Positions 1,813-40,262 of a stretch of 64,000 nt of DNA are shown one piece after another. The notes beneath the pieces were generated by a model that was not told the origin of the DNA, did no database searches, and worked only from the letters and a program-made list of their open reading frames with translations. Position numbers and translations under genes: made by a program. Every line of letters starts with the position of its first letter. The stretch's first letter is position 1. Source of the DNA: Candidatus Latescibacterota bacterium (GTDB lineage Bacteria; Latescibacterota; UBA2968; UBA8231). The stretch lies in contig CBDCXV010000010.1 in the NCBI GenBank assembly GCA_965223905.1, forward strand, positions 352,001 through 416,000, given 5' to 3'.

Positions 1813-1820
1813 CGAAAAAA

Positions 1821-13867: not shown

Positions 13868-14440
13868 GCACCCACATAGACTATGGGATGCGTCCCCTGG
13901 CTCAATTTAATGTTTTCCCGCGGATTAAATACGAGACTGGTGGTTAGATCGGGCATACTTTCCGTTATGGTCGTGCCCCCTCCTCCTACACCAGGAGGTA
14001 TTTCAAATGTCATTACGTAATCATCGTAATATGGCAAATGCGCCCCATGCAATAGATATTCCACGCCTAGTACTTCTATATCGTCAATATTGTCATGGAG
14101 ATGCCTCGTATTGACAATTACATGAATTCTCTGCCAGTCGCCCTCATGTCTGTTCCACCAGTGATTGTAGGGATAGAAGTAGAGATATTGAATTACAGTG
14201 ATGTCTCCCAACATATCGTGATTGCTGATATCGTATACATACACGTAGGCTGTATTCGGGAAGTTATCGCCCGCGTGAGGTCCGTCGCCAAAGTACGTGC
14301 CATTCCATCCGGGGGTTATGAGGTAATCTGGTCCATCCGGAAAAGGATTCGGGACCTTTTTCCCTTCTGGTTTCACACCGGGATAATCAAAGTAAGGAAC
14401 TACTTTGTAAAAGCCATTTTTAAAACCAGGGGGAGCACCG
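13868..14440 (-). pseudogene. Lower-GC gene fragment with a QY..FYPYN...HEGDW motif (Vps62/NPP1-like), fused in frame to the transposase remnant
   Basis: VIQYLYFYPYNHWWNRHEGDWQRI...HPIVYVGA runs into LLDDTAADP. Confidence 0.55.
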
Positions 14441-14767
14441 ATGTATTCGAAGGGAGAGATCTCGGCGAAGGAGTTCCTGGCGAGAATGTCGAATACGGTT
14501 AACGCTATCGACCTCGTTTTGATCATGATCCGTGAAACGCTTAAACAAAAAGAAGGAGGTGAACGAGAAGGCTGTCAGCGGCTGGATGAGAAAGCCGGTA
14601 CGGGCTTACCAGAAGATCAAGGTGTGTGGGTGTCAGCTCAGCGAAGTCGCAATCGGCCGCGCGACGTCGCTACGGCAGCCCTGGCGAAATGTTCGTTCAG
14701 GATGTCTGGAAGGCTCTCGATAATGGCGAGATCATCGACGCGAAAAGTCGGATCGCGTTGCGGTGGC

Positions 14768-16924
14768 TCAGGAATCGGAACTCCCAATGCTGACCGGCTG
14801 TGTCGTCGGCCGAAGGGCCGTTGGAGTCATCTCCTTGTCCCAGCTGGCCAGCTGGGACATCATCTCGAACAGGTTTATCAGCGCCGCGAGCGATTCCACG
14901 CTCGCAGTCTCTTCCTTCTTCGACAACGGCACGGTGAAATCCCTGCACACCCTGATGAACTTCAGTTTTTTCGCTCTGGCGAACTCGCCATCTTTCTTAG
15001 AGTCTCCCACGAACACCACCTCTTCGGGTTTCAGCCCGTGGTCTTGTAGGATGGCGGTGATCTGTCTCCCTTTGTCAAACCCGGCTTTATAGCCAAACAC
15101 TCCATCTATCTGGTCCTGGAGTCCCGTCCGTGCCGCGTACTCCTCGACCAGCTCGACCCGAGTGCTGCTGCACACAAATGTGTTGAGCCCTTTTTGTTTC
15201 AAGTATGACAGGGTTGGGATGGCATCGCGGAACAGAGGCAGAGCAAAAATCCCATTACTCTTGCGCGCCTCGAACTGCTCCGCCACCTCTGCGTTCCTTT
15301 TGTGCTTTGGGAACATCTCCTCCACTTGGTCCGCAAACGGAAGCCCCGAGGTCTCCAAATACTGACTTCGGACTCTGGCCGCTGTGATGGAGTAATTCCG
15401 CGTGATCAATTCGGTAGCCAACTCGGTGAGGAAGGGCATCGTGTCGGCCAGAGTCCCGTCAAAGTCGAACACGACTGCCTTGACTCCCATGCCTGTAGCT
15501 GGGGTCACGGGTTGATAAGCTGAATCCTGGCGTTGGGACACGCCGTGACCCTTCGTCTGTCTCCACGAAAACAGCATCCGCCAGATAACGATGAGGTTCG
15601 TGTGCACCGCTGTGAGCGCCACTCCCAGCATCGCAAAGCCGGGGTGGAACCACGTCGCCAGCCCACAGCAGAAGAGCAAGAAGAGACGCACATCACGTCC
15701 TCGCCCTGCTGCGATCCATTTTCCCGTGTACTTGTGATTCAAGTTGACGACAGACTTAGCCGATGTATAGCTCACCATCAAATGGCCGACAATCGCCATC
15801 ACTGCGATGGCGAAGATCGCCACTGGATTCCACACGAGCCCGATGACCTCCCGGCCTCCGAGCTCCGACAGGGCATAGAAGGTGAGCCCGGCAAACATCA
15901 GACTATCTGCGTACCGATCGAGGACAGCGTCAAAGTAGTCCCCCATTTTGGATTGCAGATGCTTGAGCCGCGCAACTTCCCCATCACACCCGTCCAGAAT
16001 ACTGGAAAGCTGCATCACCACGGCGCCAGCGATCGCCTCGCCAGCGAAGAAGCACGCACTGCTCAAGGCGGCGACGACAAAGCTCACCACCGAAACTTGA
16101 TTAGGCGTAATAGCCGGGCAGAGCTTTAGAAGCAGAGGTGTGAGCAATCGGCTCGAAAGGGGCCGGTTTATGTAACGGGAAACCCAACCGTCAGCTGCTT
16201 TGGTCGACAGGTTCGACAACAGCTCGTGCTCGGCCTTGAAGAGCGCGGCCTCGTCGTCGACGTCCATCCAGAACCGCCCCTGTATGTCGAATGCCGCTAC
16301 CTTACCGCGATCAGCCAGGAGCTGGACAGCCCCCGACAGAGAGGTGTCGTCGCAGGCACGAATACAGGTCTTGATCGCCTTGAAAAGAGCGGGGGAGCAC
16401 AGGAAAATGCCTGCGTCGTACGCGTTGTACCGAGAAATTTGTTTGCCGATTTTGAGGATTCTTCCACCGTTGGCGAGTACGTTCGTCACATCATCCGGAT
16501 CCGCTCGGCCATTCGTGGCCAGGTCGTAATCTACTGCCAAGCGTACGTCGGCATTTCCCAGCGGCTCGCAGAGGAGTCTTTTGAGGATCTCCTCATCGAA
16601 GACGTGGTCTGCCATGAGCAAGACGAAATCGCCTTCCAGCAGATGGGCAGCCTTTAAAACCGACAGACCGTTTCCCTCTTGCCAGTCTTCGTTGATGACC
16701 GGCGTGATCCGCACGTTCATCTTCTGGCTCAGCTCGTCCAGAAAGGACCGAACCATCTCTCCTTGGTAACCCGTTACCACGTAGAGATCGGTCAGTCCAC
16801 TTCTGACTGCCGTACGAATTGTCCGTTCGACGAGCGGCATGCCCAGCAGGGGCACGAGCGGCTTTGAGGGCCCTCTGCGGGATAACCGGCTCCCCCTGCC
16901 GGCGGCGATAATGAGGCATTTCAT
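14768..16924 (-). CDS. Nucleotidyltransferase + CDP-alcohol phosphatidyltransferase (IPCT/DIPPS-like) + HAD phosphatase fusion, 718 aa
   Basis: IIAAGRGSRL..KPL; DGCDGEVAR...GDYFDAVLDRYAD; FDFDGTLADT...FVGDSKKD. Confidence 0.88.
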   Translation of the reverse strand: MKCLIIAAGRGSRLSRRGPSKPLVPLLGMPLVERTIRTAVRSGLTDLYVVTGYQGEMVRSFLDELSQKMNVRITPVINEDWQEGNGLSVLKAAHLLEGDFVLLMADHVFDEEILKRLLCEPLGNADVRLAVDYDLATNGRADPDDVTNVLANGGRILKIGKQISRYNAYDAGIFLCSPALFKAIKTCIRACDDTSLSGAVQLLADRGKVAAFDIQGRFWMDVDDEAALFKAEHELLSNLSTKAADGWVSRYINRPLSSRLLTPLLLKLCPAITPNQVSVVSFVVAALSSACFFAGEAIAGAVVMQLSSILDGCDGEVARLKHLQSKMGDYFDAVLDRYADSLMFAGLTFYALSELGGREVIGLVWNPVAIFAIAVMAIVGHLMVSYTSAKSVVNLNHKYTGKWIAAGRGRDVRLFLLFCCGLATWFHPGFAMLGVALTAVHTNLIVIWRMLFSWRQTKGHGVSQRQDSAYQPVTPATGMGVKAVVFDFDGTLADTMPFLTELATELITRNYSITAARVRSQYLETSGLPFADQVEEMFPKHKRNAEVAEQFEARKSNGIFALPLFRDAIPTLSYLKQKGLNTFVCSSTRVELVEEYAARTGLQDQIDGVFGYKAGFDKGRQITAILQDHGLKPEEVVFVGDSKKDGEFARAKKLKFIRVCRDFTVPLSKKEETASVESLAALINLFEMMSQLASWDKEMTPTALRPTTQPVSIGSSDS

Positions 16925-17041
16925 GTGTGGGACGAACTCCTCGCGTGCGGTCATTTTTCCTTTGACAGTTGAGGACAGAAGGGGCAATCTTGGGGGCGGA
17001 GACATGAAAGGGCGCAAAAACCCCCTTCACTAGCCTCCACC

Positions 17042-17577: not shown

Positions 17578-17685
17578 ACTATCGAATATTATCTAACGTC
17601 AATTCGGATGGGTCTCCCCCTTCTTATCATGACTATCGAATATTATCTAACTTATCATGCGTCAATTCGGATGGGTCTCCCCCTT
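17578..17685. repeat. Scrambled short direct repeat (A-B-c-A-c-B)
   Basis: A=ACTATCGAATATTATCTAAC, B=GTCAATTCGGATGGGTCTCCCCC, c=TTATCATG, each twice. Confidence 0.85.
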
Positions 17686-17972
17686 GGTGCGACCGCAAGC
17701 TCAGCCGCCTAGCTGTTCGGGTTCGTCGCGTCCGTGAGCACGGAGCCTCTCGAAGCTGATGTCGCTCAGCAACTTTCAGAGGCTGACGAAATCTTCTGAG
17801 TGGCAGCTTGCAGGAACGATTCGACCTGAAGTTCAACGTCTATGATCCTTAAGGAATGGTCGTCGTTGGTGTTCACATCTTCCTCTCGTCCGTACGCCAA
17901 ATCACCCCGACCAGGAAGTACGGCAGGATCACAGCCTGAAACACTGGGCCGTCACGCCATCCCTGGATCCGT

Positions 17973-19040
17973 ATGAATAAGCCCAATGCAGTTGTCGTGG
18001 GTTACGGCTTCGCCGGCCGCTGCTTTCACGCCTACCTGGTTGGTATCACAGCAGATCTCAACCTGTACGGCGTCGTCTCCGGCCGTCCCGAGGCTCGCGA
18101 AGAAGTCCGCTCTCAGCTTGGCGTGAAAGCGTTCGAGCGTTTTGAAGAGGCTCTCGCCGATTCAAATGTCGACCTGGTTGTCCTCGCCACGCCCAACGAT
18201 ATCCACGCTCCGCAGGCCATAGCCGCCATGGAGGCTGGCAAGCACGTGGTCACGGACAAACCGATGTGTCTGAATCTACGAGAGGCAGACGATATGATCG
18301 CCGCCAGCCGCAGGACCGGACGTCTGCTCAGCATCTTTCAGAACCGGCGCTGGGATGGGGACTACCTCACTGTCCGGAAAGTGCTCGAGGAAGGCTTGAT
18401 CGGTGACCCGTACTACATCGAGATGGCATGGCAGCAGTACGGCCCTCCCCGGACCTGGCGCGGAGAAAGGCGGCGCGGCGGCGGCAAATTCGTGGATCTG
18501 GGAGCGCACATGATCGATCAAGCCCTCCAACTGATTCGCGCGTCCCTCGATCGGGTCTACGCCCGCTTTTTCTCGGAGGGGTGGCCGACCGAGGTGGAGG
18601 ACCACGCCCACTGTATTCTGAGTTTCGACAGCGGCGTCGATGTGCACGTTGTGACTTCGTCACTCACCACACACTCAAAGCCGAGATGGTACATATTGGG
18701 GACAAAGGGCGGACTCGTGAAGACGGGTCTGGATCCCCAGGAGAAGGCCATGGTCGCTGGAGATATCGACGCGGCCCGTGAGGATCCGGCCCACTATCCA
18801 CGGCTGTGGACGGCAGTCGCCGGGCAGCCGGCTGAGACCGTGATCGAACCCGTACCCGGACGGTGGCGGTCCTATTACGAGAATATCGCTGCAGCCATCC
18901 GAGGTACAGAGGAGCTGGCAGTCACCCCGGAAAGTGTCCGTGCCGTCATGGCTGTGTTGGAGGCGGCGCGCACATCAGTTGAGCGCGGTGAAGCAGTTTC
19001 GTTGGACGAAACAGCAGGCAGTAGCAGATCTGGCGCATAG
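17973..19040 (+). CDS. Gfo/Idh/MocA oxidoreductase (YdgJ/IolW-like)
   Basis: VVGYGFAG, VTDKPM, QNRRWDGD and DLGAHMID motifs. Confidence 0.9.
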   Translation: MNKPNAVVVGYGFAGRCFHAYLVGITADLNLYGVVSGRPEAREEVRSQLGVKAFERFEEALADSNVDLVVLATPNDIHAPQAIAAMEAGKHVVTDKPMCLNLREADDMIAASRRTGRLLSIFQNRRWDGDYLTVRKVLEEGLIGDPYYIEMAWQQYGPPRTWRGERRRGGGKFVDLGAHMIDQALQLIRASLDRVYARFFSEGWPTEVEDHAHCILSFDSGVDVHVVTSSLTTHSKPRWYILGTKGGLVKTGLDPQEKAMVAGDIDAAREDPAHYPRLWTAVAGQPAETVIEPVPGRWRSYYENIAAAIRGTEELAVTPESVRAVMAVLEAARTSVERGEAVSLDETAGSSRSGA

Positions 19041-19288
19041 CGCCACATTCCCGCATCACCATCAAGTATAGGTAAAATGAGGCACCTTTTTTGGACTCTC
19101 GGTCAAGGCGGACAGCGCACCGCCAGGGTCAGGCAGCTCCCGGAGGATCGTTTGCCAGTCCTTCGACCGAGCTCGCAGTACAGTTTGGTTGCCTGTCGGC
19201 CCGTATCCGGATCAATTCGGGGCCTGAGGGACCGTTGAGGGCACACCCCGCCGTACGCCCGGCGACGGCCACGGGTCGAGAAGGCAGG

Positions 19289-20044
19289 TCAGGCGGCGAA
19301 CTCGAACAGCGGCTCAGGCGGGGCCCTCGGCGGGGGCATCGCCGGCAGCCCTACCCCCTCCAGACAGGTCCGGATCGAAGCCGGATCGGTCCGGGCGGCG
19401 AGGATTCTCAGGCGACCGCCACAGGCCGCACATTCGCTGAGGTCGGAGGAAAACACCCGCGCCAGCAGGGTCGCCCACCGCAGCCGATGGCCGCAGGACG
19501 CAGGGCTCGCCGAGCCGTCCGCCGCCGACGGCTCGGCAACCGGCTTGGCCGGCACGATGCGCTCGCGGGCCCGGGGCCGGGGCGCCAGGACCCCGTGGTA
19601 GCGCAGGAGATGAAACCGGGGCGGGGGAACCAGAGCCGCCCGCTTCTCCAGCGTCTCGATGCGGATGTACGCCATCCCCTCCCCCTTCAGATGCTCGATG
19701 GCCGTCTCCACCAGTTTCAGCCCGATCCCCTTTCTCTGATGCCGCGGTAGCACAGCGTAGTTTGGAATCCCGCCTATTTTGGCTTCTTCGTCTACGCGGG
19801 TAGTGATGTAGCCCACCACCTCGCCGTCGACCTCAGCGACGAACATTCCGTCAGCATGCGCATCCACGTCCGCGTCGATATGCCGCTTCTTGCGCCAGCG
19901 CCAGCCGTGACCGGCGATCGGGCCGAACTCCTTCTCGATGTTCTGATCGATGGAGACACCGTCGAAGCAGATGGCGGTGATTTCTTTGACGATGTCGAGA
20001 TCGGCGTCGGTGCACTTCCTGTCGGTGCACTTCCTTATGTTCAT
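19289..20044 (-). CDS. GNAT acetyltransferase fused in frame to the transposase C-terminus (copy 1)
   Basis: VLPRHQRKGIG GNAT motif, then IETLE|KRAALVPPPRFHLLRYHG. Confidence 0.85.
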   Translation of the reverse strand: MNIRKCTDRKCTDADLDIVKEITAICFDGVSIDQNIEKEFGPIAGHGWRWRKKRHIDADVDAHADGMFVAEVDGEVVGYITTRVDEEAKIGGIPNYAVLPRHQRKGIGLKLVETAIEHLKGEGMAYIRIETLEKRAALVPPPRFHLLRYHGVLAPRPRARERIVPAKPVAEPSAADGSASPASCGHRLRWATLLARVFSSDLSECAACGGRLRILAARTDPASIRTCLEGVGLPAMPPPRAPPEPLFEFAA

Positions 20045-20062
20045 GTCGTTTTCCGCTCGCGC

Positions 20063-20417
20063 CTACTGCCTCTGCACCAGTTCGATCAGCAACCCGTCCG
20101 GATCCCTCGCGCATACGACGCCGCCGTTTTCGTACATGAACGGGTCCGACACGAATTCCACACCTCGTCCCTGCAGTTGCGCCACCGTATCTTTCAGATC
20201 GGCCACGAAGAAAGTGATCCAGCGAACGCCGGCAGAGAAATCCCCGGAGCCCGAGGCCGGCGGCGACTCGATCTGCATCAGCTTGAGCAGGGTGTCACCC
20301 GCTTGGAGCCGCACCTGGCGGAAACCGCTGGGCGCCAGCCCCACCTGTGTGGCCAGTTCCGCGGAGATCTCCAGCTCCACGGCGATCTCGAATCCAAGCT
20401 GATCGCGATAAAACTCC
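20063..20417 (-). pseudogene. VOC/glyoxalase gene, 5'-truncated copy
   Basis: Same as 23211-23565 but lacks the first ~21 codons. Confidence 0.85.
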
Positions 20418-20616
20418 GCGTCCTGAGAAGAAGGGACGATCGACAACGGCCCTGAGCTTGGATACCTTTCGCCGGCGCTACCTGCGCGTGCCCTCGCGTA
20501 GTACGTTCCACGGTCGGGCGGTCGGAGTGACCATCGCGCAAGCGATCGCCGCCCGCTGGTACCGTCTCTGGAGATTCCTTGCCACGCTCAAACCCGTCGA
20601 CATGATTACCGCATGA
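20418..20616 (+). pseudogene. Possible C-terminal remnant of an IS1380-like transposase
   Basis: LDTFRRRYLRVPSRSTFHGR resembles IS1380 C-termini; similarity judged by eye only. Confidence 0.35.
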
Positions 20617-21746: not shown

Positions 21747-22213
21747 GGGACCGGGAGTGCTTGATCGACGGGTGAGCGCGTACTCAAATGGCTGCGAGAC
21801 TTCTCAGAATATACGTAAGTTCCACTTTCGCTACCACCCAGGTCCCGCTGCGGCGACTTCGCCGCCTTGGCCTCCGGAAACCTGGCTGCGCCAGGTTCCC
21901 AAACCGTGAGACGTTATGCGGAATTTTCAGGATAGAGACGAGGTGCATTGGAGTTGAGCCTAATTGACAAACTGCCAAGCCCCGAATGGGTCAGGAAGGA
22001 ATATGGGATTCTCTGGGATGGACAGTACTGCGACATGACCGGCAGTATCGCCCATGTTGTCAGGATCGAGCCAAAGAATGTTGGGGGATCCTATGTGGTT
22101 CGAATCTCCGATCCCAAGCGGATCTGCAGCGGCGGCTGTCGCTAGTTCACCGGTTCCAGACTCACCTGACCACTAGAGGTGTGCGGACCGTTCTGCCGCT
22201 GAAGGCCCTTAAA

Positions 22214-22800
22214 GTATAGGTAAAATGAGGCACCTTTTTTGGACTCTCGGTCAAGGCGGACAGCGCACCGCCAGGGTCAGGCAGCTCCCGGAGGATCGTT
22301 TGCCAGTCCTTCGACCGAGCTCGCAGTACAGTTTGGTTGCCTGTCGGCCCGTATCCGGATCAATTCGGGGCCTGAGGGACCGTTGAGGGCACACCCCGCC
22401 GTACGCCCGGCGACGGCCACGGGTCGAGAAGGCAGGTCAGGCGGCGAACTCGAACAGCGGCTCAGGCGGGGCCCTCGGCGGGGGCATCGCCGGCAGCCCT
22501 ACCCCCTCCAGACAGGTCCGGATCGAAGCCGGATCGGTCCGGGCGGCGAGGATTCTCAGGCGACCGCCACAGGCCGCACATTCGCTGAGGTCGGAGGAAA
22601 ACACCCGCGCCAGCAGGGTCGCCCACCGCAGCCGATGGCCGCAGGACGCAGGGCTCGCCGAGCCGTCCGCCGCCGACGGCTCGGCAACCGGCTTGGCCGG
22701 CACGATGCGCTCGCGGGCCCGGGGCCGGGGCGCCAGGACCCCGTGGTAGCGCAGGAGATGAAACCGGGGCGGGGGAACCAGAGCCGCCCGCTTCTCCAGC
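22214..22800 (-). mobile_element. IS91/ISCR-type element piece 5 (ori plus transposase 3' end)
   Basis: Same ori end; collinear with 6781-7369. Confidence 0.92.
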
Positions 22801-23192
22801 GTCTCGATGCGGATGTACGCCATCCCCTCCCCCTTCAGATGCTCGATGGCCGTCTCCACCAGTTTCAGCCCGATCCCCTTTCTCTGATGCCGCGGTAGCA
22901 CAGCGTAGTTTGGAATCCCGCCTATTTTGGCTTCTTCGTCTACGCGGGTAGTGATGTAGCCCACCACCTCGCCGTCGACCTCAGCGACGAACATTCCGTC
23001 AGCATGCGCATCCACGTCCGCGTCGATATGCCGCTTCTTGCGCCAGCGCCAGCCGTGACCGGCGATCGGGCCGAACTCCTTCTCGATGTTCTGATCGATG
23101 GAGACACCGTCGAAGCAGATGGCGGTGATTTCTTTGACGATGTCGAGATCGGCGTCGGTGCACTTCCTGTCGGTGCACTTCCTTATGTTCAT
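22437..23192 (-). CDS. GNAT::transposase C-terminus fusion (copy 2)
   Basis: Identical translation to 19289-20044. Confidence 0.85.
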   Translation of the reverse strand: MNIRKCTDRKCTDADLDIVKEITAICFDGVSIDQNIEKEFGPIAGHGWRWRKKRHIDADVDAHADGMFVAEVDGEVVGYITTRVDEEAKIGGIPNYAVLPRHQRKGIGLKLVETAIEHLKGEGMAYIRIETLEKRAALVPPPRFHLLRYHGVLAPRPRARERIVPAKPVAEPSAADGSASPASCGHRLRWATLLARVFSSDLSECAACGGRLRILAARTDPASIRTCLEGVGLPAMPPPRAPPEPLFEFAA

Positions 23193-23210
23193 GTCGTTTT
23201 CCGCTCGCGC

Positions 23211-23630
23211 CTACTGCCTCTGCACCAGTTCGATCAGCAACCCGTCCGGATCCCTCGCGCATACGACGCCGCCGTTTTCGTACATGAACGGGTCCGACAC
23301 GAATTCCACACCTCGTCCCTGCAGTTGCGCCACCGTATCTTTCAGATCGGCCACGAAGAAAGTGATCCAGCGAACGCCGGCAGAGAAATCCCCGGAGCCC
23401 GAGGCCGGCGGCGACTCGATCTGCATCAGCTTGAGCAGGGTGTCACCCGCTTGGAGCCGCACCTGGCGGAAACCGCTGGGCGCCAGCCCCACCTGTGTGG
23501 CCAGTTCCGCGGAGATCTCCAGCTCCACGGCGATCTCGAATCCAAGCTGATCGCGATAAAACTCCAGCGATTTGTCGAAGTCGCTGCAGACGATGGCGAT
23601 GTCGACGACGGTGTGAGTTTGTTTGATCAT
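23211..23630 (-). CDS. VOC/glyoxalase family protein
   Basis: SLEFYRDQLGF and RDPDGLLIELV motifs. Confidence 0.9.
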   Translation of the reverse strand: MIKQTHTVVDIAIVCSDFDKSLEFYRDQLGFEIAVELEISAELATQVGLAPSGFRQVRLQAGDTLLKLMQIESPPASGSGDFSAGVRWITFFVADLKDTVAQLQGRGVEFVSDPFMYENGGVVCARDPDGLLIELVQRQ

Positions 23631-23685
23631 GTTCGCCTACCTCCTCTTTGGTCGAACGAGCCCCGAGGCGCTGGCGCAGCCCGGC

Positions 23686-24675
23686 TCATCGCATCCGGGA
23701 GTCGGACATCCACATGTCAGGGTTCCGGCCGATGGCGTCTTTGACAGGTTGTGTCAGGCGCTCTAACTCGGCCATCGTAGCTGCGTCGAGCTCCAACGAA
23801 AGCGTCGGCAGGTTGGTCTCCAGTTCGTCCGCATCCCGGGCGCCGACCAGGAAGGATGTCACTCCCCTCTGCTGTCTCACCCAGGCGAGTGCCACGCTCG
23901 CCATCGGGGCGCCAACCTGGCGGCTCAACTCGCGAATGCCGGAGATGGCGCTGAAAACAGCTGCCTCGCATCCCGGCTCGCCGTGTCCGGCCTGCGCGCG
24001 GGAGCTCGCATACCATCGCGTCCGGGCCAGCCCCTCCGGAACCTCGTCAGCCGTCGCATACCTTCCCGTCAGCAGCCCCTGCGCCAGCGGACTGTAGCAT
24101 ATCAACCCGATCGCGCTCTCGCGGCAGAGCGGCAGGATTTCAAACTCGATTGCCCGCCACAGAAGGCTGAAGGGCAGCTGGTTCGTCTCCGGCCGGCCAA
24201 CCTCGATCAGATCGGACAGGTCGCCGACGGCGAAGTTCGCGACACCGAGCGCGCGCACCTTGCCCTCCCTCACCAGATCCTCGAGCGCGCGCCAGGACGT
24301 GTCGATCGGGATGTCGTGATTTGGCCAGTGGATCTGGTACAGGTCGATGTAGTCCGTATTCAGATTTTTGAGGCTCTCCTCGCAGGCGGACGCGATCCCT
24401 TCCGCAGTCAGGTGGTTCGGGGCTACCTTGGTTGCGATCACCGCCTGCTGGCGCCTCCCTTCCAGACCACGTGCGAGAACACGCTCGGACTCACCCTTCT
24501 CGTATGCCTCTGCCGTGTCGAAGAGGTTGATGCCCGCGTCCAGTGCGGCGCGCACCGTCGCAATCGATTGATCGTCGTCCTGATCGCCCCAGATCGAGCC
24601 GCCCGCGAAGGGCCAGCAACCCAGACCCATCACCGAGACTTCGATACCCAAATTGCCCAGCCTCCGGTATTCCAC
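23686..24675 (-). CDS. Aldo/keto reductase
   Basis: GLGCW, FDTAEAY, DLYQIHWP and YSPLAQGLLTG motifs. Confidence 0.93.
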   Translation of the reverse strand: MEYRRLGNLGIEVSVMGLGCWPFAGGSIWGDQDDDQSIATVRAALDAGINLFDTAEAYEKGESERVLARGLEGRRQQAVIATKVAPNHLTAEGIASACEESLKNLNTDYIDLYQIHWPNHDIPIDTSWRALEDLVREGKVRALGVANFAVGDLSDLIEVGRPETNQLPFSLLWRAIEFEILPLCRESAIGLICYSPLAQGLLTGRYATADEVPEGLARTRWYASSRAQAGHGEPGCEAAVFSAISGIRELSRQVGAPMASVALAWVRQQRGVTSFLVGARDADELETNLPTLSLELDAATMAELERLTQPVKDAIGRNPDMWMSDSRMR

Positions 24676-24692
24676 TTCACTCCTTCATGTGA

Positions 24693-25265
24693 TCAAAGCT
24701 CGTTGAGGCCTGTCAGGCTGTCAGTCCTGAGTGCCACAGCCTGTGAAAACGCCCCGACCTCAGCAGAAGATCTAAGACGCACAAATCGTATGTGGTTCCA
24801 AGACGATTCAGTAGTATATGCCAGCATACTGCGACGCGTGCGCCGGTGCTGCGTGACAATCCACCATAGCAGCGAATCCTCCTTGCGCCAGACCATGAGC
24901 TGGGGCCAGAAACGCTCGTAGTTTGTCCCCCAAAGCGGCTCCTGCGACCGCCAGCGACGCCACGAATCGAATCAGCATTCGCCAGATGAGTGGAACCATG
25001 GGCAAATCCAGCCAGCGATCGTCTCCAGGCGTGGCCAGAAAATGCGTTGTGAAAATTGCATGTAGGAGCCGGCCACAACCCATCCATCACCACGGGTTGC
25101 TTCGCCTATTCTCCGTTCGAGTTCCTCGGGGTTTGTGTCGCTCAGAGCAACCCAGCCAGGTTGCCAATTGAGCGCGTCCAACTCCACCAAGGGGACGCCG
25201 AGGGCGGCCGACAGCTGCGCTCCCAAGGTGCTTTTTCCAGCGCAGCTATTCCCAACTATTACGGG
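24693..25265 (-). pseudogene. Adenylate kinase-like P-loop protein (FlaR/topology-modulation type), frameshifted and probably 5'-truncated
   Basis: GNSCAGKST...ELDALNWQPGW, then WLDLP, then SLLWWIVTQH in different frames. Confidence 0.7.
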
Positions 25266-25378
25266 GAGCGGTAAATAGGTGACATAGATGGCACCATTTC
25301 CCCTTCGAGAGTGTTGTAAACTTTCAATTACTCCCCGTAGTATGTGAATCCTGTGGCCGGTCCGTAAGCCAGTGTGCG

Positions 25379-25819
25379 TCACTCGAACTGCCGTTCGCTC
25401 TGGCGGACCGCCTTGCCTTTGCCTCGAATGATATCCCGGCGCTTCCAGGTCTGGACGGCGCGACAGATCCAGTCGCTCTCACCGAGGAGTCGCCGTAGCT
25501 GGTCTTTCGTGAACCACTCATGCCGATCGCGGGCCAGTTGGTCAGGAGGCAATGTTTCATCGGAGTAGCCGTACAGTCGGCAGACACCGTCTTTCGTTTC
25601 AACATCCTCGATGTAGGACATCCACGGGATGTCCAGTCCGAGCTGTGTCTTTGTATAGAGCCTTATCGCCGCATCGATATTCCCGAGCCGTGACTCCTCG
25701 CTGGCCAAGCCCCGCGACCGGGCAAGCGCCTCCTGCGAAACTGTGCCATCGTCGGCTGCGGATACAGTTGGGCAGTCAGCTGACCTGCTCTGCCAGTGTC
25801 GAGGCACCGCAGAAGTCAT
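25379..25819 (-). CDS. Hypothetical protein or fragment
   Basis: 146-aa ORF with no recognised motif. Confidence 0.35.
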   Translation of the reverse strand: MTSAVPRHWQSRSADCPTVSAADDGTVSQEALARSRGLASEESRLGNIDAAIRLYTKTQLGLDIPWMSYIEDVETKDGVCRLYGYSDETLPPDQLARDRHEWFTKDQLRRLLGESDWICRAVQTWKRRDIIRGKGKAVRQSERQFE

Positions 25820-27924: not shown

Positions 27925-28108
27925 ACCCAGTAGTCCCTCTCTCGAGTGTCGCCAGGAAACCTCGACGACCTACTCAATTCCAATGGTCACAAGATGAAAC
28001 GGTAGCGGAGGAATGGAAAGAAAAGATGGATATGGAGATGCGGATGGGGATGGAGAAATGGAGATGGGCACCAGTGGAGACGTGGGAGGAGTACTACTCG
28101 ATCTCCAA

Positions 28109-28698
28109 GTATAGGTGAAATGAGGCACCCTTTTGGACTCTCGGTCAAGGCGGACAGCGCACCGCAAGGGTCCGGCAACTCCCCTGAGTGTGGATCGTTT
28201 GCCAGTCCTTCGACCGAGCTCGCAGTACAGTTTGGTTGCCTGTCGGCCCGTATCCGCATCAATCCGGGGCCTGAGGGACCGTTGAGGGCACCCCCCGCCG
28301 TACGCCCGGCGACGGCGACGGGTCGAGAAGGCAGGGCCGGCGGCGAACTCGAACAGCGGCTCAGGCGGGGCCCTCGGCGGGGGCATCGCCGGCAGCCCTA
28401 CCCCCTCCAGACAGGTCCGGATCGAGGCCGGATCGGTCCGGGCGGCGATGATTCTCAGGCGACCGCCACAGGCCGCGCATTCGCTGAGGTCGGAGGAAAA
28501 CACCCGCGCCAGCAGGGTCGCCCAGCGCAGCCGATGGCCGCAGGACGCAGCGCTCGCCGAGCCGTCCGCCGCCGCCGACGGCTCGGCAACCGGCTTGGCC
28601 GGCACGATGCGCTCGCGGGCCCGGGCCCGGGGCGCCAGGACCCCGTGGTAGCGCAGGAGATGAAACCGGGGCGGGGGAACCAGAGCCGCCAGCTTCTC
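28109..28698 (-). mobile_element. IS91/ISCR-type element piece 6 (ori plus transposase 3' end)
   Basis: Starts GTATAGGTGAAATGAGGCACC; collinear with 6781-7365. Confidence 0.92.
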
Positions 28699-28816
28699 GC
28701 TAAGGGAGAAACTGGTTGCTCGGCATGAGTAACCATACGGCGTATAACATTCCGTGCGAGGTAGGTGCGAATCGTCCGATGATACGCATCTATGGACCGT
28801 CTACCGCGAGGAACTC

Positions 28817-29884
28817 ATGAATCCGACGAAAGTCGCCGTGATCGGGTGCGGCCAGATCGCAACCTCACAACATCTGCCGGCCTACCGGGAGGCAGCAGAG
28901 GCCGGGGTCTGCTGCCTCGTGGGCGTATGCGATCTGGACCCCGAACGGGTGGCGCAGGCCGGAAAGCAGTTTGCAGTCGCCGGATTTCAGGACGCGGCAG
29001 AGATGCTCGAAAAGACCAAGCCCGATGTCGTGAGCATCGCCACGCTGCCCTCGAGTCATCGCAACCTCGCGGTGATGTGCCTGGAGGCGGGATGTCACGT
29101 CCTGTGCGAGAAGCCCGTGGCGCTGGATGCGGGCGAGGCCCGGGACATGGTCCGCGCCGCCGAAGCGAACAATCGACTGCTGAGCATCTGCTTCGAATAC
29201 CGAACCTGGGACGAATCCCGGTACCTGAGAGACCGCATCGCAGACGGCGTCCTCGGTCGCGTACACGCCGTTCGAACGTGGGGCGGGTGTGCCTACGGAC
29301 TGCCGGCGAGAGCGCACCGGTCGCATGGCTCGAACGGCGGCGGCGTTCTCGCGCACTGGACGATCCACAACCTCGACCTCGTGCTCTGGCTGCTTGGCAA
29401 CCCCGAACCGCTGACCGCCAGCGCATTCTGCCATCAGCGGGTCTCCGCTTACCCGGCGGCGGCTGGATCCATGCGAGACGACATCGATCCGGCGTCGCTC
29501 GATCCAGATTTCGAGGACTTCGGCACCGGCTTCGTCCGGCTGTCCGGCAACACCATCCTGACGGTGGAAGCGGATTTCCTTCAGGCGCCCTCTGACCGAC
29601 GCGAAGGCTTGGCCTTTCTCGGAGACCGGGGTGCCGCGTCCATCTCACCACTCAGAATCTGGACCGACGACGGACGATCGTGGCGCGAGGAGACCCCCGC
29701 CAAGGGCACGTTGAAGCCTTGCGACTACGATATGAGGAGACTGATCAACGATTTTCTGCGCGCCGTCCGCGAGGGTGAGGCGTCCCCCGTTGCGGGCGAG
29801 GAAATCGTGCGAATTCAGCGGCTCATGGACGCGCTCTATGCCTCGGCAGCGTCCGGGCAAGAGGTCGCTGTGGCAGGAGCCTGA
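28817..29884 (+). CDS. Gfo/Idh/MocA oxidoreductase
   Basis: VAVIGCGQIA and VLCEKP motifs. Confidence 0.9.
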   Translation: MNPTKVAVIGCGQIATSQHLPAYREAAEAGVCCLVGVCDLDPERVAQAGKQFAVAGFQDAAEMLEKTKPDVVSIATLPSSHRNLAVMCLEAGCHVLCEKPVALDAGEARDMVRAAEANNRLLSICFEYRTWDESRYLRDRIADGVLGRVHAVRTWGGCAYGLPARAHRSHGSNGGGVLAHWTIHNLDLVLWLLGNPEPLTASAFCHQRVSAYPAAAGSMRDDIDPASLDPDFEDFGTGFVRLSGNTILTVEADFLQAPSDRREGLAFLGDRGAASISPLRIWTDDGRSWREETPAKGTLKPCDYDMRRLINDFLRAVREGEASPVAGEEIVRIQRLMDALYASAASGQEVAVAGA

Positions 29885-29889
29885 GCGCT

Positions 29890-30496
29890 ATGGGACTTGT
29901 GTACATCGAGTACATCAGCCGTCTGCCGGGCATCGATCTGGAGACGTTTCGCGCGCAGGCTGCACAAGGCCAGGAGGGATGGGACAGCGGGTATGAGGAC
30001 GAGTTGGTTCTGTCCGTCGGTCGCACGTGGCGATTGGGTCCCGACCCGGGCTACATGACGGTCTGGCACGCGCGGAACGCCAGCCTTGACCGGATCGACG
30101 CGTGGGACCGGATCTTTCGCAGCGGCGAGGCGGACGACCTGGAACAGCCGTTCTTTCAGGTCGCGCGGATCGACGTGGCCGGCTGCTACGATCCGCTGCT
30201 CGAACCGGTCCCGGCCCGCAACGGTACCTACTACGCCGAGTTTTTCGCTGCCCGCGACACCGCGGATACCATCAGGGGCTTCTACGAGAGCCGGGCAAAA
30301 CAGCATCCTGAGTTCACCCTCAATCTCCTCGTCCAGAGAATCGGGAAGCTGGCTCCCGAACCCGGCGGCCTAGCCGTCTGGACCATCCCCCTTCGCAGCG
30401 CTGGATTCCGTGGCAACCGAGCTGGACGGAGCCAACGCCCCGATCAGGCTTTCCGCCGCAGGGACCTATGCCGACTTCGGCAGGGAGATCCTGTGA
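29890..30496 (+). CDS. Hypothetical protein, probable frameshift near 30390
   Basis: Coding-like ORF whose plausible C-terminus (GTYADFGREIL*) is in another frame. Confidence 0.55.
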
Positions 30497-30584
30497 GAGG
30501 CGGGCGGTGGCAAACCTTCGGATAAGTTCCGCGGTATCGTCACGAGCGAAGAATTTGTCTGGCTACTTCCACGCAACCTTCCTG

Positions 30585-30903
30585 CCGGGGCGGGGGAACC
30601 AGAGCCGCCCGCTTCTCCAGCAGTTCCATCGGAGACAGCAGGAGAGGGCGGGTCCCATCCGACCACGGCGTTTTGAGCGCGAAGGAAAAATGGTCGGCAT
30701 CGAGAATGCGCAGACGCCCCCCCGCCAGGGCCGGCCGGGCCACGTAGCGGCACAAGCGTTCGAGCCCCCGTCGAGCATGAGCAGTGCATGTGGGGATTGA
30801 GGTTCAGGGAGGAGCCGAACCGCTGGACGAAGGTCACCGAGCCCCAGCGCGCGCGGTCATGGCCCATGGCCTGCGCCTGACGTCGATACCAACGGCCCAC
30901 CAC
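30585..30903 (-). mobile_element. Piece 7: internal transposase fragment without ori, with ~350-bp internal deletion
   Basis: Joins 7332-7515 to ~7867-8004 at a C-run. Confidence 0.9.
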
Positions 30904-31032
30904 ACCTCGAGTTCATTCAGGGCGTGATCGCCCCCCTCGCCGGTAACTCCTTCCACCTGAAGAGCTGGGCCGTCCTCCTGGTTTCGGCGCTGCTGGTCTT
31001 CCTGACTTGGAAAGGGAGGGTCGAGTTGGCCC
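30903..31032 (+). pseudogene. N-terminal fragment of a small membrane protein
   Basis: HLEFIQGVIAPLAGNSFHLKSWAVLLVSAL, between two transposase pieces. Confidence 0.55.
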
Positions 31033-31212
31033 CCGCAGCCGATGGCCGCAGGACGCAGCGCTCGCAGCGCAGTCCGCCGCCGACGGCTCGGCAACCGGCT
31101 GGGCCGGCACGATGCGCTCGCGGGCCCGGGCCCGGGGCGCCAGGACCCCGTGGTAGCGCAGGAGATGAAACCGGGGCGGGGGGACCAGAGCCGCCCGCTT
31201 CTCCAGCAGTTC
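31033..31212 (-). mobile_element. Piece 8: internal transposase fragment
   Basis: Collinear with ~7195-7374. Confidence 0.9.
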
Positions 31213-31480
31213 GCGGCGGCTGGCGGGGAGCGGCGCGATGATTGCGGGCGGGCTACGCCGCGCAGAAGAAAGTGTATTTGAAGCAGACCGAGGCGGCGGG
31301 CCTGGAGCGCATGCACGGGCTGCGCCACGGCTACTCTCTCGATGCGCTAACGGGAACCTGACGCATGGAAGGCGCCAGTGCGGAGAGTCCCCCGACACCC
31401 GCGGCGGCCGGAACGGCCGAACGAAGACGGCCCCGAATGGGTCGAGGCCCAAGGCCAGGGCCAGCGGGTCGGACCCGTGC
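31213..31480 (+). pseudogene. Degenerate tyrosine recombinase (Integrase_1-like) fragment
   Basis: QTEAAGLERMHGLRHGY (HxLRH) followed by frameshifted LT.WKAP. Confidence 0.55.
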
Positions 31481-31519
31481 TCGAACCTCGGTAATGTGTA
31501 TATTTATACACAATAAGGA

Positions 31520-31717
31520 ATGGTTGTGGAACGCAACAGCGGCAGGCTCATCCGGATGCTCCAACAGGACGGCTGGGTGCATGTCGCCACCAAGGGCAGC
31601 CACTGGCAGTTCACGCATCCCGCCAAGCCGGGGCGCGTCACCGTGCCGCACCCGAACAAGGACATCCCGCGCGGAACGGTGGCGTCGATCTACCGGCAGG
31701 CAGGCTGGAAGGCGTAA
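31520..31717 (+). CDS. hicA: HicA-family toxin
   Basis: DGW...KGSHWQFTHPAKPGRVTVPHPNKDIPRGT. Confidence 0.93.
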   Translation: MVVERNSGRLIRMLQQDGWVHVATKGSHWQFTHPAKPGRVTVPHPNKDIPRGTVASIYRQAGWKA

Positions 31718-31729
31718 GGAGGACGACTG

Positions 31730-32131
31730 ATGCGCTACGTATCCTTCATCCACCGGGACGACGCCGGCTACGGGGTCAGCTTCCCGGACTTCCCGGGTTG
31801 CGTCTCGGTCGGCGACACGGTTGACGACGCCGTCAGGCAAGGCGGCGAAGCCCTCGCGTTCCACGTTGAGGGGCTCCGCGACGACGGCGAGCCGATTCCC
31901 GCGCCCCGCTCGATCGACGCCATCAAGGCCGACCCGGACCTCGCCGAGTGGCGGCGCGGCGCCGACTTCGTGCTGATCCCGCTCCTCCTGGACCGCGGAT
32001 CCTCGCGGCGGGTCAATATCTCCCTTGACCGCGGCCTGCTCGACGCCATCGACGACGAGGCCAGGCAGCGCCGCATGACCCGGTCGGCCTTCCTGGCGAC
32101 GGCCGCCCGGCACGAGATCGAGGGCACGTGA
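31730..32131 (+). CDS. hicB: HicB-family antitoxin
   Basis: YGVSFPDFPGC...RVNISLD...TRSAFL. Confidence 0.93.
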   Translation: MRYVSFIHRDDAGYGVSFPDFPGCVSVGDTVDDAVRQGGEALAFHVEGLRDDGEPIPAPRSIDAIKADPDLAEWRRGADFVLIPLLLDRGSSRRVNISLDRGLLDAIDDEARQRRMTRSAFLATAARHEIEGT

Positions 32132-33067
32132 CCGGAGGCGACGGAGAAGGCACGAACGCAGACCAAGAGCGGGACCCGGGACGGGTGTTCGGGTGAGCCG
32201 GTGAAGGACCCGTACTGGTGATGGTTGTGCGCCCAGAGGAAACTGAGGCGAGATACGGCGTGCCGGTTCTCGAGAGAGAACGGTCCTGGCGCGAAGAACG
32301 ATGAAGGAGGCGTGGCATCTGTACGAGGCGGTGATCGGCAACACCCGCCTGTGGTTCAAGCTACAGGCTTCGTGTTCTTCTAGGACGCCGGCGGCGTTCT
32401 TCGAGTACCGGTTCACGGGGGCCGAGTACACTCCGGTGAATGGAGACCGTCCGGTGACCCCTTTCAGGTTGTCGGAACGTTGCCAGCACATTGCCAACCG
32501 GTCGGCAATTGTCGACCAGCTCCCCCATCAAGACGCGAAACGTTAGGTACGAGAATTACATCCGCGAGATGGAGGAGCGGATCGCCGAGCGCGACGAGCA
32601 GGTGCGGGAGGAGAGACGCCGGAGAGCGCAACGACCCGCGACTGGGGGCTCGATTCCGGCGGGGTCCAACGGACCGCGGGCTAGGCAGCCGGACCCAGCC
32701 AAGACGCTGGCCCGAGCGCTCCGTCGGGTCAACGGGCTGATCGGCCAGGGCTTCTACTGCTCGATCCACGGTCGTCACCACCGCTACGGCGAGCAGGCCA
32801 AGCGGAAGACCGTGGCGAGCCTTACCGAGACGATGGCGCAGATCTCGAGTTGGTGGCCGGCGGATCGCGAGTTGGCGATGTCGCGGATGGACGACATCGC
32901 GGCACACTGGTTGCAGGTGAATCAGTCACAAGAGTGCGCGCAGCGGTCGGTGTGGGGCGATGGGGACATCCCTGACGTCCTTTACAAGTACATCCCCAGG
33001 GAACGGATAGGCGGACGGGGCGCCGGATACCCTGCGTGCGACACAGCTGCTGGCCCTGAACGACGAC

Positions 33068-33853
33068 ATGGAATGCAACGTCGTCGCGATGAAGGGCGGC
33101 GAGGAAGCCGCCCTCGAGTTCCTGCGGTCGGTGCAATCCAAGGTGAAGGAGCATCTGGGCGTCGACGTGCCGTGGGAGGACCTCCTGGTGCGGTGGCAGT
33201 TGTACGCCGATGTCAGGCTATCCACATACGTGCAGGAGTACTTGAACACCCGGTTGGGCGTTGTCTCGTTCAGCACCGACATACTGGTCCCGACGATGTG
33301 GGCGCACTACGCCCGGAACACGGGGATAGTGGTGGGTTACGACAGGGACGCGTTGAAGGCACTCGGGTTCGAGTTGAGGCCCGTGCTCTATTCGGAAATA
33401 GCCCCCGTCTGGGAACCGAGGGAAGGGGAGGACATCCGGCTCGATTTCGTCAACCGCGAGGACGTGGAACGGGAGCTGCGGTCGGGCCGGGATCGGGAAG
33501 GCTGGCCCATCCTCACGCGCACACAGCTCGCCACGTTCGGGGGGTATTGGAAGCTGCTGTCCCGACTACTGTTCGTGAAAGGCATGAGCTGGGCGTACGA
33601 GAAGGAAGTCAGGTTGCTGGTGGACCTCGAGCAGGCGCGCGACACCGGCAAGGTCCGCGATGGCTGGCCCGTCAAGGTGATCCAACCTCCGCGGGAGGCG
33701 ATAAGGGAAGTCTACGGCAGTACCAACACAAGGGAGGAGGACCTCGAACAGGCCGTTCAGGTGGCCCGCGGCGAACGCAAGGATGGGCTATTCGTCGGGC
33801 ATGTGTCGGGCCACGCTTTTCGCATGCAGAAAACCGGCGGGACTCGCTATTGA
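33068..33853 (+). CDS. DUF2971-like protein; probably extends upstream to ~32500 across a frameshift near 33012
   Basis: LYKY...LND upstream; MWAHYA and K..SWAYEKEVR motifs. Confidence 0.7.
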   Translation: MECNVVAMKGGEEAALEFLRSVQSKVKEHLGVDVPWEDLLVRWQLYADVRLSTYVQEYLNTRLGVVSFSTDILVPTMWAHYARNTGIVVGYDRDALKALGFELRPVLYSEIAPVWEPREGEDIRLDFVNREDVERELRSGRDREGWPILTRTQLATFGGYWKLLSRLLFVKGMSWAYEKEVRLLVDLEQARDTGKVRDGWPVKVIQPPREAIREVYGSTNTREEDLEQAVQVARGERKDGLFVGHVSGHAFRMQKTGGTRY

Positions 33854-33971
33854 GTGGTGTGTCACGTTGGATTATCTGAACGGGCTTGGTGGCGAGGCAG
33901 GTCTGATCCGTACCCATTCACGGGGGCCGGAGAGTGGGAGTCGATGCGCGACGCTCACGTTGTGGGAGGCA

Positions 33972-34068
33972 TTTCGGGTTCGCGGCGACGGTACCCGCGT
34001 GGGCGGACAGGTGTGGCCGGCATGGTGCCGGTCCAACAGCAATGGGCGGACCACCCGTGCTCACGTCC
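33972..34068 (-). mobile_element. Piece 9: transposase 5' end and ter-side leader
   Basis: Matches 8386-8482 with a few substitutions. Confidence 0.85.
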
Positions 34069-34174
34069 CTTGTATTCCGGGACTTGCTCTATGACTGGGG
34101 GGGGGTCAGCGCACGGGAGTGTGAAGATTTTCACCCGCCTCAGGTACGCCCCGCCACGGCTGGGCGCCGCATCC

Positions 34175-38956: not shown

Positions 38957-39997
38957 ATGAAAATATTGAAAGCACTTGTACTAGCCCTGATGGCACTTCT
39001 TATACTTACACGATCGGAAGGCTTTGCCAGCGCGGAGTGGATTGAAGTTGACGCATCTGGCAACATACCGGAGGGAAGTATAGTGGTAGGGTGTGATGAC
39101 GGATCGAGCAGGGACATGTGCGCGACCCCTGTGTACGTGTGTCGTGGTATGATTGAGGGCACATCATTCACAGGAAAAACAGGGCAAGGATGGGGATTCT
39201 GTAATATTGAACGGGACGGCCAGGAGCACCAAGTCACTCCACATTTCGTTTTGCATGGCAGGGTGAATGGTTATGCGCAGGCAGAAGCAGGCGGGACTAT
39301 CACTGCAGACAAGCAAGGTTTGTTCACTCAGGAACAACTGGAGGCGGCCGTCGCTGCGGGCAAGCAAGGCTTGTTCACTCAGGAACAACTGGAGGCGGCC
39401 GTCGCTGCGGGTAAGCAAGGCTTGGGTACTCATGCCCTACTTCACGAGACGCGTGCAGAGCGTCCTCCAGGTGGGCAATTTTGTAGTAGAAATTGCCGCG
39501 AAGCCGGTAGATTACTGTGCCCCCAACCCCATCTATCTGACATCTGTCACGGGGTTTCGGCAATTATTATGTATTCTCGTCAGGGCTCTGAGAACGCAGA
39601 GGATATTGTGCAGGCCTGGAGCTTAAAGGAGCCCTCCAAGCGCCGTAGATTGGAATCGACCTGTAAAGATGCAGGCGTGCCGTTACCGGAGAGCGGGGCT
39701 ACCACTGCAGGCAAGCAAGGTTTGGGTACTCATGCACTACTTCACGAGACGCGTGCCGAGCGTCCTCCAGGGCAATTTTGTAGTAGAAATTGCCGGGAAG
39801 CCGGCAGATTACAGTGCCCCCAACACCATCTATCTGACATCTGTCACGGGGTTTCGGCTATTATTACGTATTCTCGTCAGGGCTCTGAGAACGCAGAGGA
39901 TATTGTGCAGGCCTGGAGCTTAAAGGAGCCCTCCAAGCGCCGTAGATTGGAATCGACCTGTAAAGACGCAGGTGTGCCGTTACCGGAGATCCGCTGA
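38957..39997 (+). CDS. Secreted protein: DM9/DUF3421-like domain, 2x17-aa repeats and 2x ~95-aa Cys-rich repeats
   Basis: Signal peptide; W...GNIPEGSIVVG...VYVCRG...GK...CNI; DNA repeats 39310-39360/39361-39411 and 39412-39691/39712-39988. Confidence 0.75.
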   Translation: MKILKALVLALMALLILTRSEGFASAEWIEVDASGNIPEGSIVVGCDDGSSRDMCATPVYVCRGMIEGTSFTGKTGQGWGFCNIERDGQEHQVTPHFVLHGRVNGYAQAEAGGTITADKQGLFTQEQLEAAVAAGKQGLFTQEQLEAAVAAGKQGLGTHALLHETRAERPPGGQFCSRNCREAGRLLCPQPHLSDICHGVSAIIMYSRQGSENAEDIVQAWSLKEPSKRRRLESTCKDAGVPLPESGATTAGKQGLGTHALLHETRAERPPGQFCSRNCREAGRLQCPQHHLSDICHGVSAIITYSRQGSENAEDIVQAWSLKEPSKRRRLESTCKDAGVPLPEIR

Positions 39998-40262
39998 CAA
40001 TTAAAGTGACACCCAGCACGTAGAAGGGCGCACGCGTTGTGGCGAAGCGGTGTTCCTCCGGTTCTTGACCTTGGCCCGTTATATACGGCCCAGTCCATCC
40101 AGCCTGGCCCTTTGCCATCGGCATCATCGCTGGGCTTACCCCCAAAGCCGCATGCTGGGGGCTTCTTGCTCGTACCGGCGGAATTCAGTGCCTCCAAATT
40201 CCGTTCATGAAAAATACGGCGCGCCTCACCGCCCCTTCAGCGCGACATGGCTCTTTCCGCGG

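Follow-up and report, generated by a model that had tools for sequence, protein, structure and literature searches.

Overview of the locus

We analyzed a 64-kb window on a metagenome-assembled contig of a Candidatus Latescibacterota bacterium, and in particular its stretch between positions 28107 and 34140, where pieces of a repeated element alternate with unrelated genes. Using Pfam and NCBIfam, the repeat was identified as an insertion sequence (IS) of the IS91 family, ISCR-like and of the rolling-circle type with an HUH transposase; its two ends are referred to below as ori and ter. The element was mapped by blastn with the fullest window copy (c2) and by an nhmmer profile of 1779 positions, in which ori is position 1 and which was built from two copies outside the window (L001 and L004), c2 and nine partial copies. 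Three piece ends with low-confidence nhmmer alignment were trimmed by eye (30904-30917, 31026-33 and 33943-71). The window contains 11 pieces of the element, all in one orientation: six ori-anchored copies (c1-c6), of which c1 is in two parts, and four further pieces that follow c6 (p7-p10). All six ori-anchored copies are truncated on the ter side. No intact transposase gene was found within the window, thus further movement would require a transposase supplied from elsewhere in the genome.

The stretch at 28107-34140 holds five of these pieces (c6, p7, p8, p9 and p10), which are co-oriented and collinear with the element except for a backward step at 31034 (Table 1). A first-pass annotation of the window had described it as a single element spread over 6 kb with cargo between its pieces. 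The layout that it gave, with a roughly collinear order and one step back, is borne out by the blastn and nhmmer mapping, and its assignment of ori to the 3' side and ter to the 5' side of the transposase gene is correct. It also held that a 130-bp fragment between the pieces is foreign to the element, and this fragment indeed reads as part of a family of 128-aa proteins (residues 8-49, 33 of 42 identical). The inner pieces p7, p8 and p9 are devoid of ori and for this reason cannot be independent insertions, as had been argued. At the joint between p7 and p8 (30763-30773), the element passes from position 742 to position 1086, so that 343 internal positions are missing and 9-11 bases overlap; this junction is a microhomology deletion. 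The last piece, p10, carries the start of the transposase gene (~17 codons), its leader and a complete ter end with both of its inverted repeats.

Table 1. Pieces of the IS91-family element in the window and the genes and fragments lying between its pieces at 28107-34140
Feature	Coordinates	Strand	Element positions	Description
c1	1819-2812	-	1-554 + 810-1225	ori-anchored, internal deletion, ter-truncated (blastn, nhmmer)
c2	6779-8482	-	about 1-1704	fullest copy, transposase gene frameshifted, ends in GTCC
c3	12897-13867	-	1-966	ori-anchored
c4	19064-19652	-	1-595	c4 unit runs to 20417
c5	22212-22800	-	1-595	c5 unit runs to 23565
c6	28107-28698	-	1-587	ori and transposase 3' part; nhmmer E 3e-181; 93.4% identical to c2
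Cargo A	28699-30584	+		Gfo/Idh/MocA oxidoreductase and gene of an unnamed ~200-aa family
p7	30585-30773	-	555-742	middle part, without ori; nhmmer E 4e-61
p8	30763-30903	-	1086-1226	middle part, without ori; nhmmer E 6e-39
gene fragment	30904-31033	+		small membrane-protein-like; cut at both ends; open frame 30906-31031
p9	31034-31212	-	418-596	second 3' part, ends GTTC, without ori; nhmmer E 2e-54
Cargo B	31213-33971	+		gene 3' end, hicA, hicB, DUF2971 pseudogene
p10	33972-34140	-	1603-1777	nhmmer E 2e-48

Element family and its ends

The minus-strand translation of c2 contains the Y2_Tnp (E 3e-21) and Zn_Tnp_IS91 domains of Pfam, split across two frames by the frameshift in its transposase gene. 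The c2 protein is 95% identical, across 74% of its own length, to an intact relative of 476 aa (P0003), and an H-x-H motif is seen in the translations of both. The best NCBIfam model for c2 and its intact relatives is ISCR clade Ia (NF052416), with 208-354 bits against a cut-off of 925 (330 and 354 bits for the intact relatives P0003 and P0006, respectively). The NCBIfam model of IS91 gives 44-104 bits for the same proteins (97-104 for P0003 and P0006), below its cut-off of 125. By the NCBIfam whole-protein cut-off, the element is ISCR-like but lies outside ISCR clade Ia. The transposase gene lies on the minus strand with ori downstream and ter upstream of it, therefore the element runs from ori on the left to ter on the right on the plus strand.

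The ori boundary is sharp: the six window copies all start from the same first base (AAGTATAGG), which is shared by most of the 59 outside matches. The ter boundary is common to 10 outside copies. The two ends are unlike, and a repeat search of the window revealed no inverted repeat that pairs the ori end with the ter end. A scan of the entire window with Rfam gave no match. According to a published account of IS91 (PMC13181058), the end and target tetranucleotides of the family are CTTG, GTTC and GTCC. Among the six window copies CTTG abuts ori in c2 only, and the left flanks of ori outside the window display no tetranucleotide consensus; many of these junctions may not be primary insertions. 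Copy c2 splits a gene for a UPF0173 metal-dependent hydrolase (6702-6778 and 8483-9216), whose frame runs across the element. Target duplication is absent at this site, the sole one where it can be tested. Because its flanks continue one hydrolase frame without repeated bases, c2 was inserted as a unit ending in GTCC. The ends of c2 (GTCC) and p9 (GTTC) both coincide with tetranucleotides on the family list.

The ter end was placed using copies elsewhere, as the first-pass annotation had proposed. Ten outside copies can be aligned with the window past 34068 (L001, L002/L011, L003, L004, L012, L013, L016, L017, L020 and L043). Their homology reaches ...GTGAAGATT at 34129 and continues through ~10 loosely similar bases to ~34140, beyond which the flanks diverge. 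The element therefore ends at about 34129-34140, and c2, which stops at 8482, falls 61-72 nt short of the family ter; the earlier suggestion that the true ter lies around 34054-34140 and is missing from the second copy of the window is thus correct. The inverted repeats reported at 34054-34117 are present. Across the 10 aligned copies, 94% of cells are paired for the 7-bp outer repeat and 68% for the inner one; neither consensus folding nor a count on the two repeats revealed a compensatory change. The sequence of the ter repeats is thus conserved with no compensatory pair, and their structure is neither supported nor refuted.

Parent copies of the pieces

Several pieces of the stretch overlap in element coordinates: c6 and p7 share 33 positions (1-587 vs 555-742), c6 and p9 share ~170 (1-587 vs 418-596), and p7 and p9 share ~40. 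The overlapping sequences are also unlike. Over 173 nt, c6 differs from p9 by 6 mismatches plus 1 gap (94.8% identity) and from c3 by 3 mismatches (98.3%); the divergence between c6 and p9 is as large as that between any two copies. The proposal of one parent element is supported by neither observation, and the comparison of single-nucleotide differences, suggested earlier as a check, gave the outcome that had been named as refuting it. The divergence points to at least two parent copies, and the overlaps in element coordinates point to at least three. The stretch therefore holds remnants of at least three copies, and probably of four, namely c6, p7 with p8, p9 and p10. An attempt to assign parents by best match failed, as the pieces are too short and match several copies at 94-98%; p7, p8 and p10 are each 94-97% identical to several copies, and no parent can be named for them. 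We also considered a breakpoint hot spot at element positions 555-596, where five window breakpoints fall. It was rejected, as the pooled histogram of 171 breakpoints has no peak.

Related loci in other Latescibacterota genomes

A genome scan for relatives of the element yielded 64 loci, and the close relatives are all in complete-chromosome metagenome-assembled genomes of Candidatus Latescibacterota. One of these chromosomes, OZ242214.1, represents a sister genome close to that of the window. Its locus L020 matches window positions 34041-56094 in seven blocks at 89-95% identity and has a single nearly whole copy of the element (positions 2-1272 and 1675-1777) at the same junction of ter with ydjM as p10. 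Since this copy holds parts that are absent from the mosaic in the window, its derivation from the mosaic is excluded, and the common ancestor carried a plain element at the ydjM site. Nothing in the window matches the left flank of the L020 copy; the left side has been rearranged in one lineage.

To the left of the stretch, window positions 23548-25654 match another locus of the sister genome, L003, at 99.4-99.5% identity, and in L003 too an ori-anchored copy comes next, although a different one. A further locus of the sister genome, L018, contains a segment X (window 17655-19063), one element copy (positions 1-966) and a segment Y (window 13868-17010), in this order. The window has these segments in other places, Y after c3 and X ahead of c4, so that the two junctions of one ancestral insertion lie 5 kb apart in permuted order. 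The junction of the c4 left flank with ori is common to the window and L018, and the junction of position 966 with the flank at c3 is likewise found in L018. Since the left junction of c4 is shared with L018 while its right side differs, the content to the right of ori can be swapped with the left junction kept. Identity to L018 is 98.4% for flank X and 99.5% for flank Y, but only 91.4% for the element between them. A crossover point was sought by sliding identity of c3 and c4 against L018, and no sharp switch was seen.

More generally, array-linked segments are 97.5-99.5% identical between the window and the sister genome, and the chromosome to the right of the stretch is 89-95% identical. 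The higher identity hints at a recent exchange of array segments. A 122-bp piece of an MR/MLE gene region at window positions 6285-6406 abuts the equivalent of window position 23548 in L003, at 99% identity.

Arrays of element pieces in the family

To describe the behavior of the family, element pieces were counted in the window and 34 Latescibacterota loci, with overlapping loci merged by contig coordinates. The census comprises 129 pieces, 73 with ori and 13 with the ter end. Neighboring pieces within 10 kb lie on the same strand in 100 of 104 pairs and on opposite strands in 4, and in 54 of the same-strand pairs the second piece has ori. Abutting internal deletions number 27, and in 19 of these the ends overlap by 1-9 nt. 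Spaced ori-less pieces, comparable to p7, p9 and p10, were found 19 times, 16 of them outside the window. Split copies, whose roughly collinear parts are separated by foreign DNA, also recur elsewhere: in L005 positions 1-643 are followed after 2072 bp by positions 544-1282, and in L003 positions 1-544 are followed by positions 847-1775 after an insert of 3638 bp that contains a DDE-type IS. By the author's hand tally, an ori-less piece restarts within 100 positions of the previous stop in 6 of 15 pairs, 2 of which look like nested insertions.

The region at 3.62-3.75 Mb of OZ244619.1, covered in part by L011, L002, L036, L023, L064 and L006, contains 32 pieces, without exception on the same strand. 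The array there far exceeds that of the window in size and consists mostly of ori-anchored stumps 1-7 kb apart.

Late termination is suggested by two copies at other sites of another genome, in L013 (9848-9890) and L001 (9788-9885), which have ~42 and 97 nt of ydjM-side flank beyond ter. The copies are full or nearly full, and the flank in L001 includes ~20 codons of the ydjM 3' end. By sequence, these extra flanks look like read-through captures.

In the window itself the c4 unit (19064-20417) is identical at 100% over 1354 bp to the c5 unit (22212-23565), 3148 bp away. The repeat has its start at the first base of ori and takes in 765 bp of DNA from truncated GNAT and glyoxalase genes; c5, the donor of the c4 unit, has the only whole glyoxalase gene. 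Either very recent copying anchored at ori or a duplication in the assembly would account for this repeat. Overlapping loci aside, c4/c5 and c3/L018 are the only ori-anchored duplicates that extend past the element among the 79 units compared. The c4 unit is abutted by the 3' end of a DDE-type IS (20419-20613, extending to about 20830), which covers the last 65 residues of its transposase at 72% identity, and the sister genome has at least five near-identical full copies of this DDE element (L003, L025 twice, L026 and L047). The GCGTCC following the c4 unit was considered as a short ter remnant and rejected, because 20419-20613 encodes the last 65 residues of the DDE transposase.

Origin of the mosaic

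The mosaic is a patchwork of a known kind, of which it is one more member. On balance, we lean towards reading the stretch as the far end, now decayed, of an array of co-oriented ISCR-like IS91-family copies, and not as a single element with spliced cargo. Its likely cause, to which we give slightly better than an even chance, is that rolling-circle transposition terminated faultily and that the copies later underwent microhomology deletions and recombined with one another. Transposition would begin at ori and end unreliably. An end that comes too early would leave ori-anchored stumps, as suggested by GTTC in p9 and GTCC in c2, and one that comes too late would carry flanking DNA along. In such a history a resident copy would have sat beside ydjM, and further ori-anchored units would have piled up on its ori side. 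Microhomology deletions and recombination between copies would then have taken away the ori ends of the inner copies and the greater part of one segment lying between pieces, of which the 130-bp gene fragment may be the residue; host genes and this fragment would be left stranded among the stumps. We infer this sequence, in which copies are laid down by bad termination and later deleted and recombined, from the pieces, their order and overlaps, the unlike overlapping sequences, the single copy in the sister genome, and the early and late ends. Of the two mechanisms put forward in the first-pass annotation, the surroundings are better accounted for by serial deletions in a longer array, and repeated template switching is neither shown nor ruled out. 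The microhomology expected at the junctions is seen at p7|p8, with its 9-11 overlapping bases.

Several observations weigh against a decayed array. Neither a donor nor a previous state of either cargo segment was found in the 64 fetched loci, and for this reason we can only infer the order of events. Three or four ori-less pieces in a row are unusual in view of 16 spaced ori-less pieces among ~120 outside the window, and such a run hints at one common cause and not at independent deletions. That c6 ends at position 587 and p7 starts at 555 would be a coincidence under the deletion model, and both cargo segments consist mostly of whole genes, which random deletions would disfavor. The truncation points of c6, c4/c5, c3, c1 and p8 end in bases other than the family tetranucleotides. 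Finally, the left flank of the sister-genome copy L020 has no match in the window, a point that bears on how the left side arose.

The main rival reading is ori-anchored overwriting, a form of the template switching proposed earlier, in which a single resident copy beside ydjM underwent three rounds of rewriting that each began at its ori side. It would explain why ori-less pieces occur in a row and why positions 587 and 555 lie so close together. A donor strand with ori, a truncated element and adjacent DNA would replace the ori-proximal part of the resident, rejoining it at position 1603, then at 418, then at 555. This account also covers the single ori and ter, the co-orientation and the overlaps, and it needs three events and one deletion, against ~7 events for an array with deletions. 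Its model case is c4, where the junction of left flank and ori is shared with L018 and the right side is a 100% copy of c5 including the 765 bp of flank, and it agrees with a faster turnover of element bodies than of flanks, as seen in the comparison with L018 (X 98.4%, Y 99.5%, element 91.4%). Nevertheless, we regard it as unlikely. No donor of cargo A or B is seen in the fetched loci, and sharing of ori-anchored sequence past the element is limited to c4/c5 and c3/L018 among 79 units. Overwriting would keep the junction of left flank and ori, yet the left flank of L020 is absent from the window. Moreover, what looked like a ter remnant behind the c4 unit proved to be a DDE transposase fragment, and, by the author's tally, the clustering of restarts lacks significance when nested insertions are left out of the count.

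Two other explanations concern the stretch as a whole. Bounded by ori at its left and by a full ter at its right, both intact by comparison with outside copies, 28107-34140 could be a composite transposon of rolling-circle type that lacks its own transposase and moves as one 6-kb unit with the enzyme acting in trans. Intact transposases of 476 aa exist in relatives, and trans-mobilization of ori-bearing fragments is documented for IS801 (PMC3189936). Such a unit seems very unlikely: its junction of ter with ydjM is shared with the sister genome, so that the right end must have kept its place from a time before the mosaic arose, neither the window nor the 64 loci yielded a second copy of the unit, and its genes are decaying (the DUF2971 pseudogene and the shifted end of the 211-aa gene). 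Mis-assembly of repeat copies in a metagenome-assembled contig could be suspected from the many repeats of 94-100% similarity, among them the exact 1354-bp repeat 3.1 kb apart. We consider it highly improbable for this stretch, where the junctions join element to non-element DNA and do not fall within shared repeat sequence, the pieces differ from each other by 3-6%, and similar split and truncated copies are present in several complete-chromosome assemblies.

Genes between the pieces and elsewhere in the window

The gene content of the stretch is ordinary, comprising an oxidoreductase, a HicAB pair and pseudogenes. In cargo A, the oxidoreductase (about 28817-29884) matches the Pfam GFO_IDH_MocA family with its C-terminal domains, and the NCBIfam dehydrogenase matches are sub-threshold only. 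It is followed by a 211-aa gene (29890-30525) of a ~200-aa family with 184 relatives. Its C-terminus is out of frame, and the full-length relatives align to residues 1-170 only. Cargo B starts with the 3' end of a gene, whose stop codon lies near 31362 by the author's reading of the sequence. Then come hicA (31520-31717) and hicB (31730-32131), which match HicA_toxin and HicB_lk_antitox over the full Pfam profiles, and a DUF2971 pseudogene (32301-33853). Comparison with DUF2971 proteins of 548-570 aa by tblastn revealed two frameshifts in the pseudogene, with three frames matched and residues 76-128 lost. A 462-aa frame in this region had been offered as a DDE transposase by a high-scoring protein-atlas lead; this was rejected, as the frame is a shifted frame of the DUF2971 gene. 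No second copy of cargo A or cargo B was found in the window or the 64 fetched loci, and PADLOC gave nothing meaningful on the cargo open reading frames (ORFs).

Two features of the window lie apart from the stretch. A SIR2-domain protein is encoded on the minus strand between c1 and c2 (4237-5307) and has weak PADLOC matches (PDC-S65, E 5e-7). Tandem and dispersed repeats with periods of 51 nt and ~297 nt are found at 39267-40040 within a stretch of lower GC content; they match the first 104 bases of the window as well and are unrelated to the element.

Relation to known rolling-circle elements

The element resembles IS91 in its unlike ends, the lack of target duplication and, on indirect evidence, termination failure; at c2, alone among the six window copies, ori also abuts CTTG, one of the target tetranucleotides of the family. 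In IS91 itself the ends oriIS and terIS differ from each other, the target is not duplicated and termination often fails (PMC13181058). The element differs from IS91 in that no orf121-like gene was seen upstream of the transposase, where a leader of ~45 nt and the ter region are found, and in that most ori flanks are without CTTG or GTTC.

Truncated copies of ISCR elements flank captured genes. The likeness to ISCR includes an IS91-like transposase, for which ISCR clade Ia is the best model, and truncated ori-bearing copies beside unrelated genes. The differences are the scores of the intact relatives, 330-354 bits against the cut-off of 925, the clear ter of the element, and its cargo in an environmental bacterium, which is of housekeeping type with a toxin-antitoxin pair.

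The closest parallel in the fate of copies is IS801 of Pseudomonas syringae. Its ori-anchored fragments of 229, 360 and 679 nt end in a ter-like tetranucleotide, and read-through extends over 290-1431 nt (PMC3189936). The authors ascribe most genomic fragments to reorganization, and the copies are seen as recombination substrates (PMC3189936). Both elements give fragments that retain the ori end and are truncated towards ter, and in both adjacent DNA is carried along by read-through. Ends at a tetranucleotide of the ter type are seen here at c2 and at p9, the latter having lost its ori. The present element belongs to another phylum and is known from sequence alone, its transposase is closer to ISCR models, its fragments occur in long co-oriented arrays, and it shows no link to virulence or resistance genes. 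In the literature library that was searched, no paper mentions the IS91 family in Latescibacterota.

Eukaryotic Helitrons are likewise rolling-circle elements that pick up gene fragments between their ends on termination failure (PMC4778049). Their hosts are unrelated and their protein architecture is different, and no membership of this group is implied. An integron-like cassette array has an integrase and sites bounding each cassette. No integrase domain was detected among 35 window ORFs in a non-exhaustive scan, and the units are bounded by element stumps and not by attC-like sites.

Implications

It can be speculated that the element is a cassette-array builder of Latescibacterota, although we hold this to be rather doubtful. 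Ori-anchored units with neighboring genes would pile up co-oriented, be copied from ori into other copies and be exchanged between strains faster than the chromosome diverges, and the 6-kb stretch would be a live composite with working ori and ter. The 32 of 32 pieces on one strand across ~125 kb of OZ244619.1 would be an example of such an array. In a broader sense, a rolling-circle IS whose termination is sloppy can convert part of the chromosome of an environmental bacterium into a patchwork in which co-oriented stumps alternate with trapped genes. The complete Latescibacterota chromosomes thus offer a data set for a question common to IS91, IS801 and ISCR elements, namely whether truncated copies arise from one-ended transposition or from later recombination.

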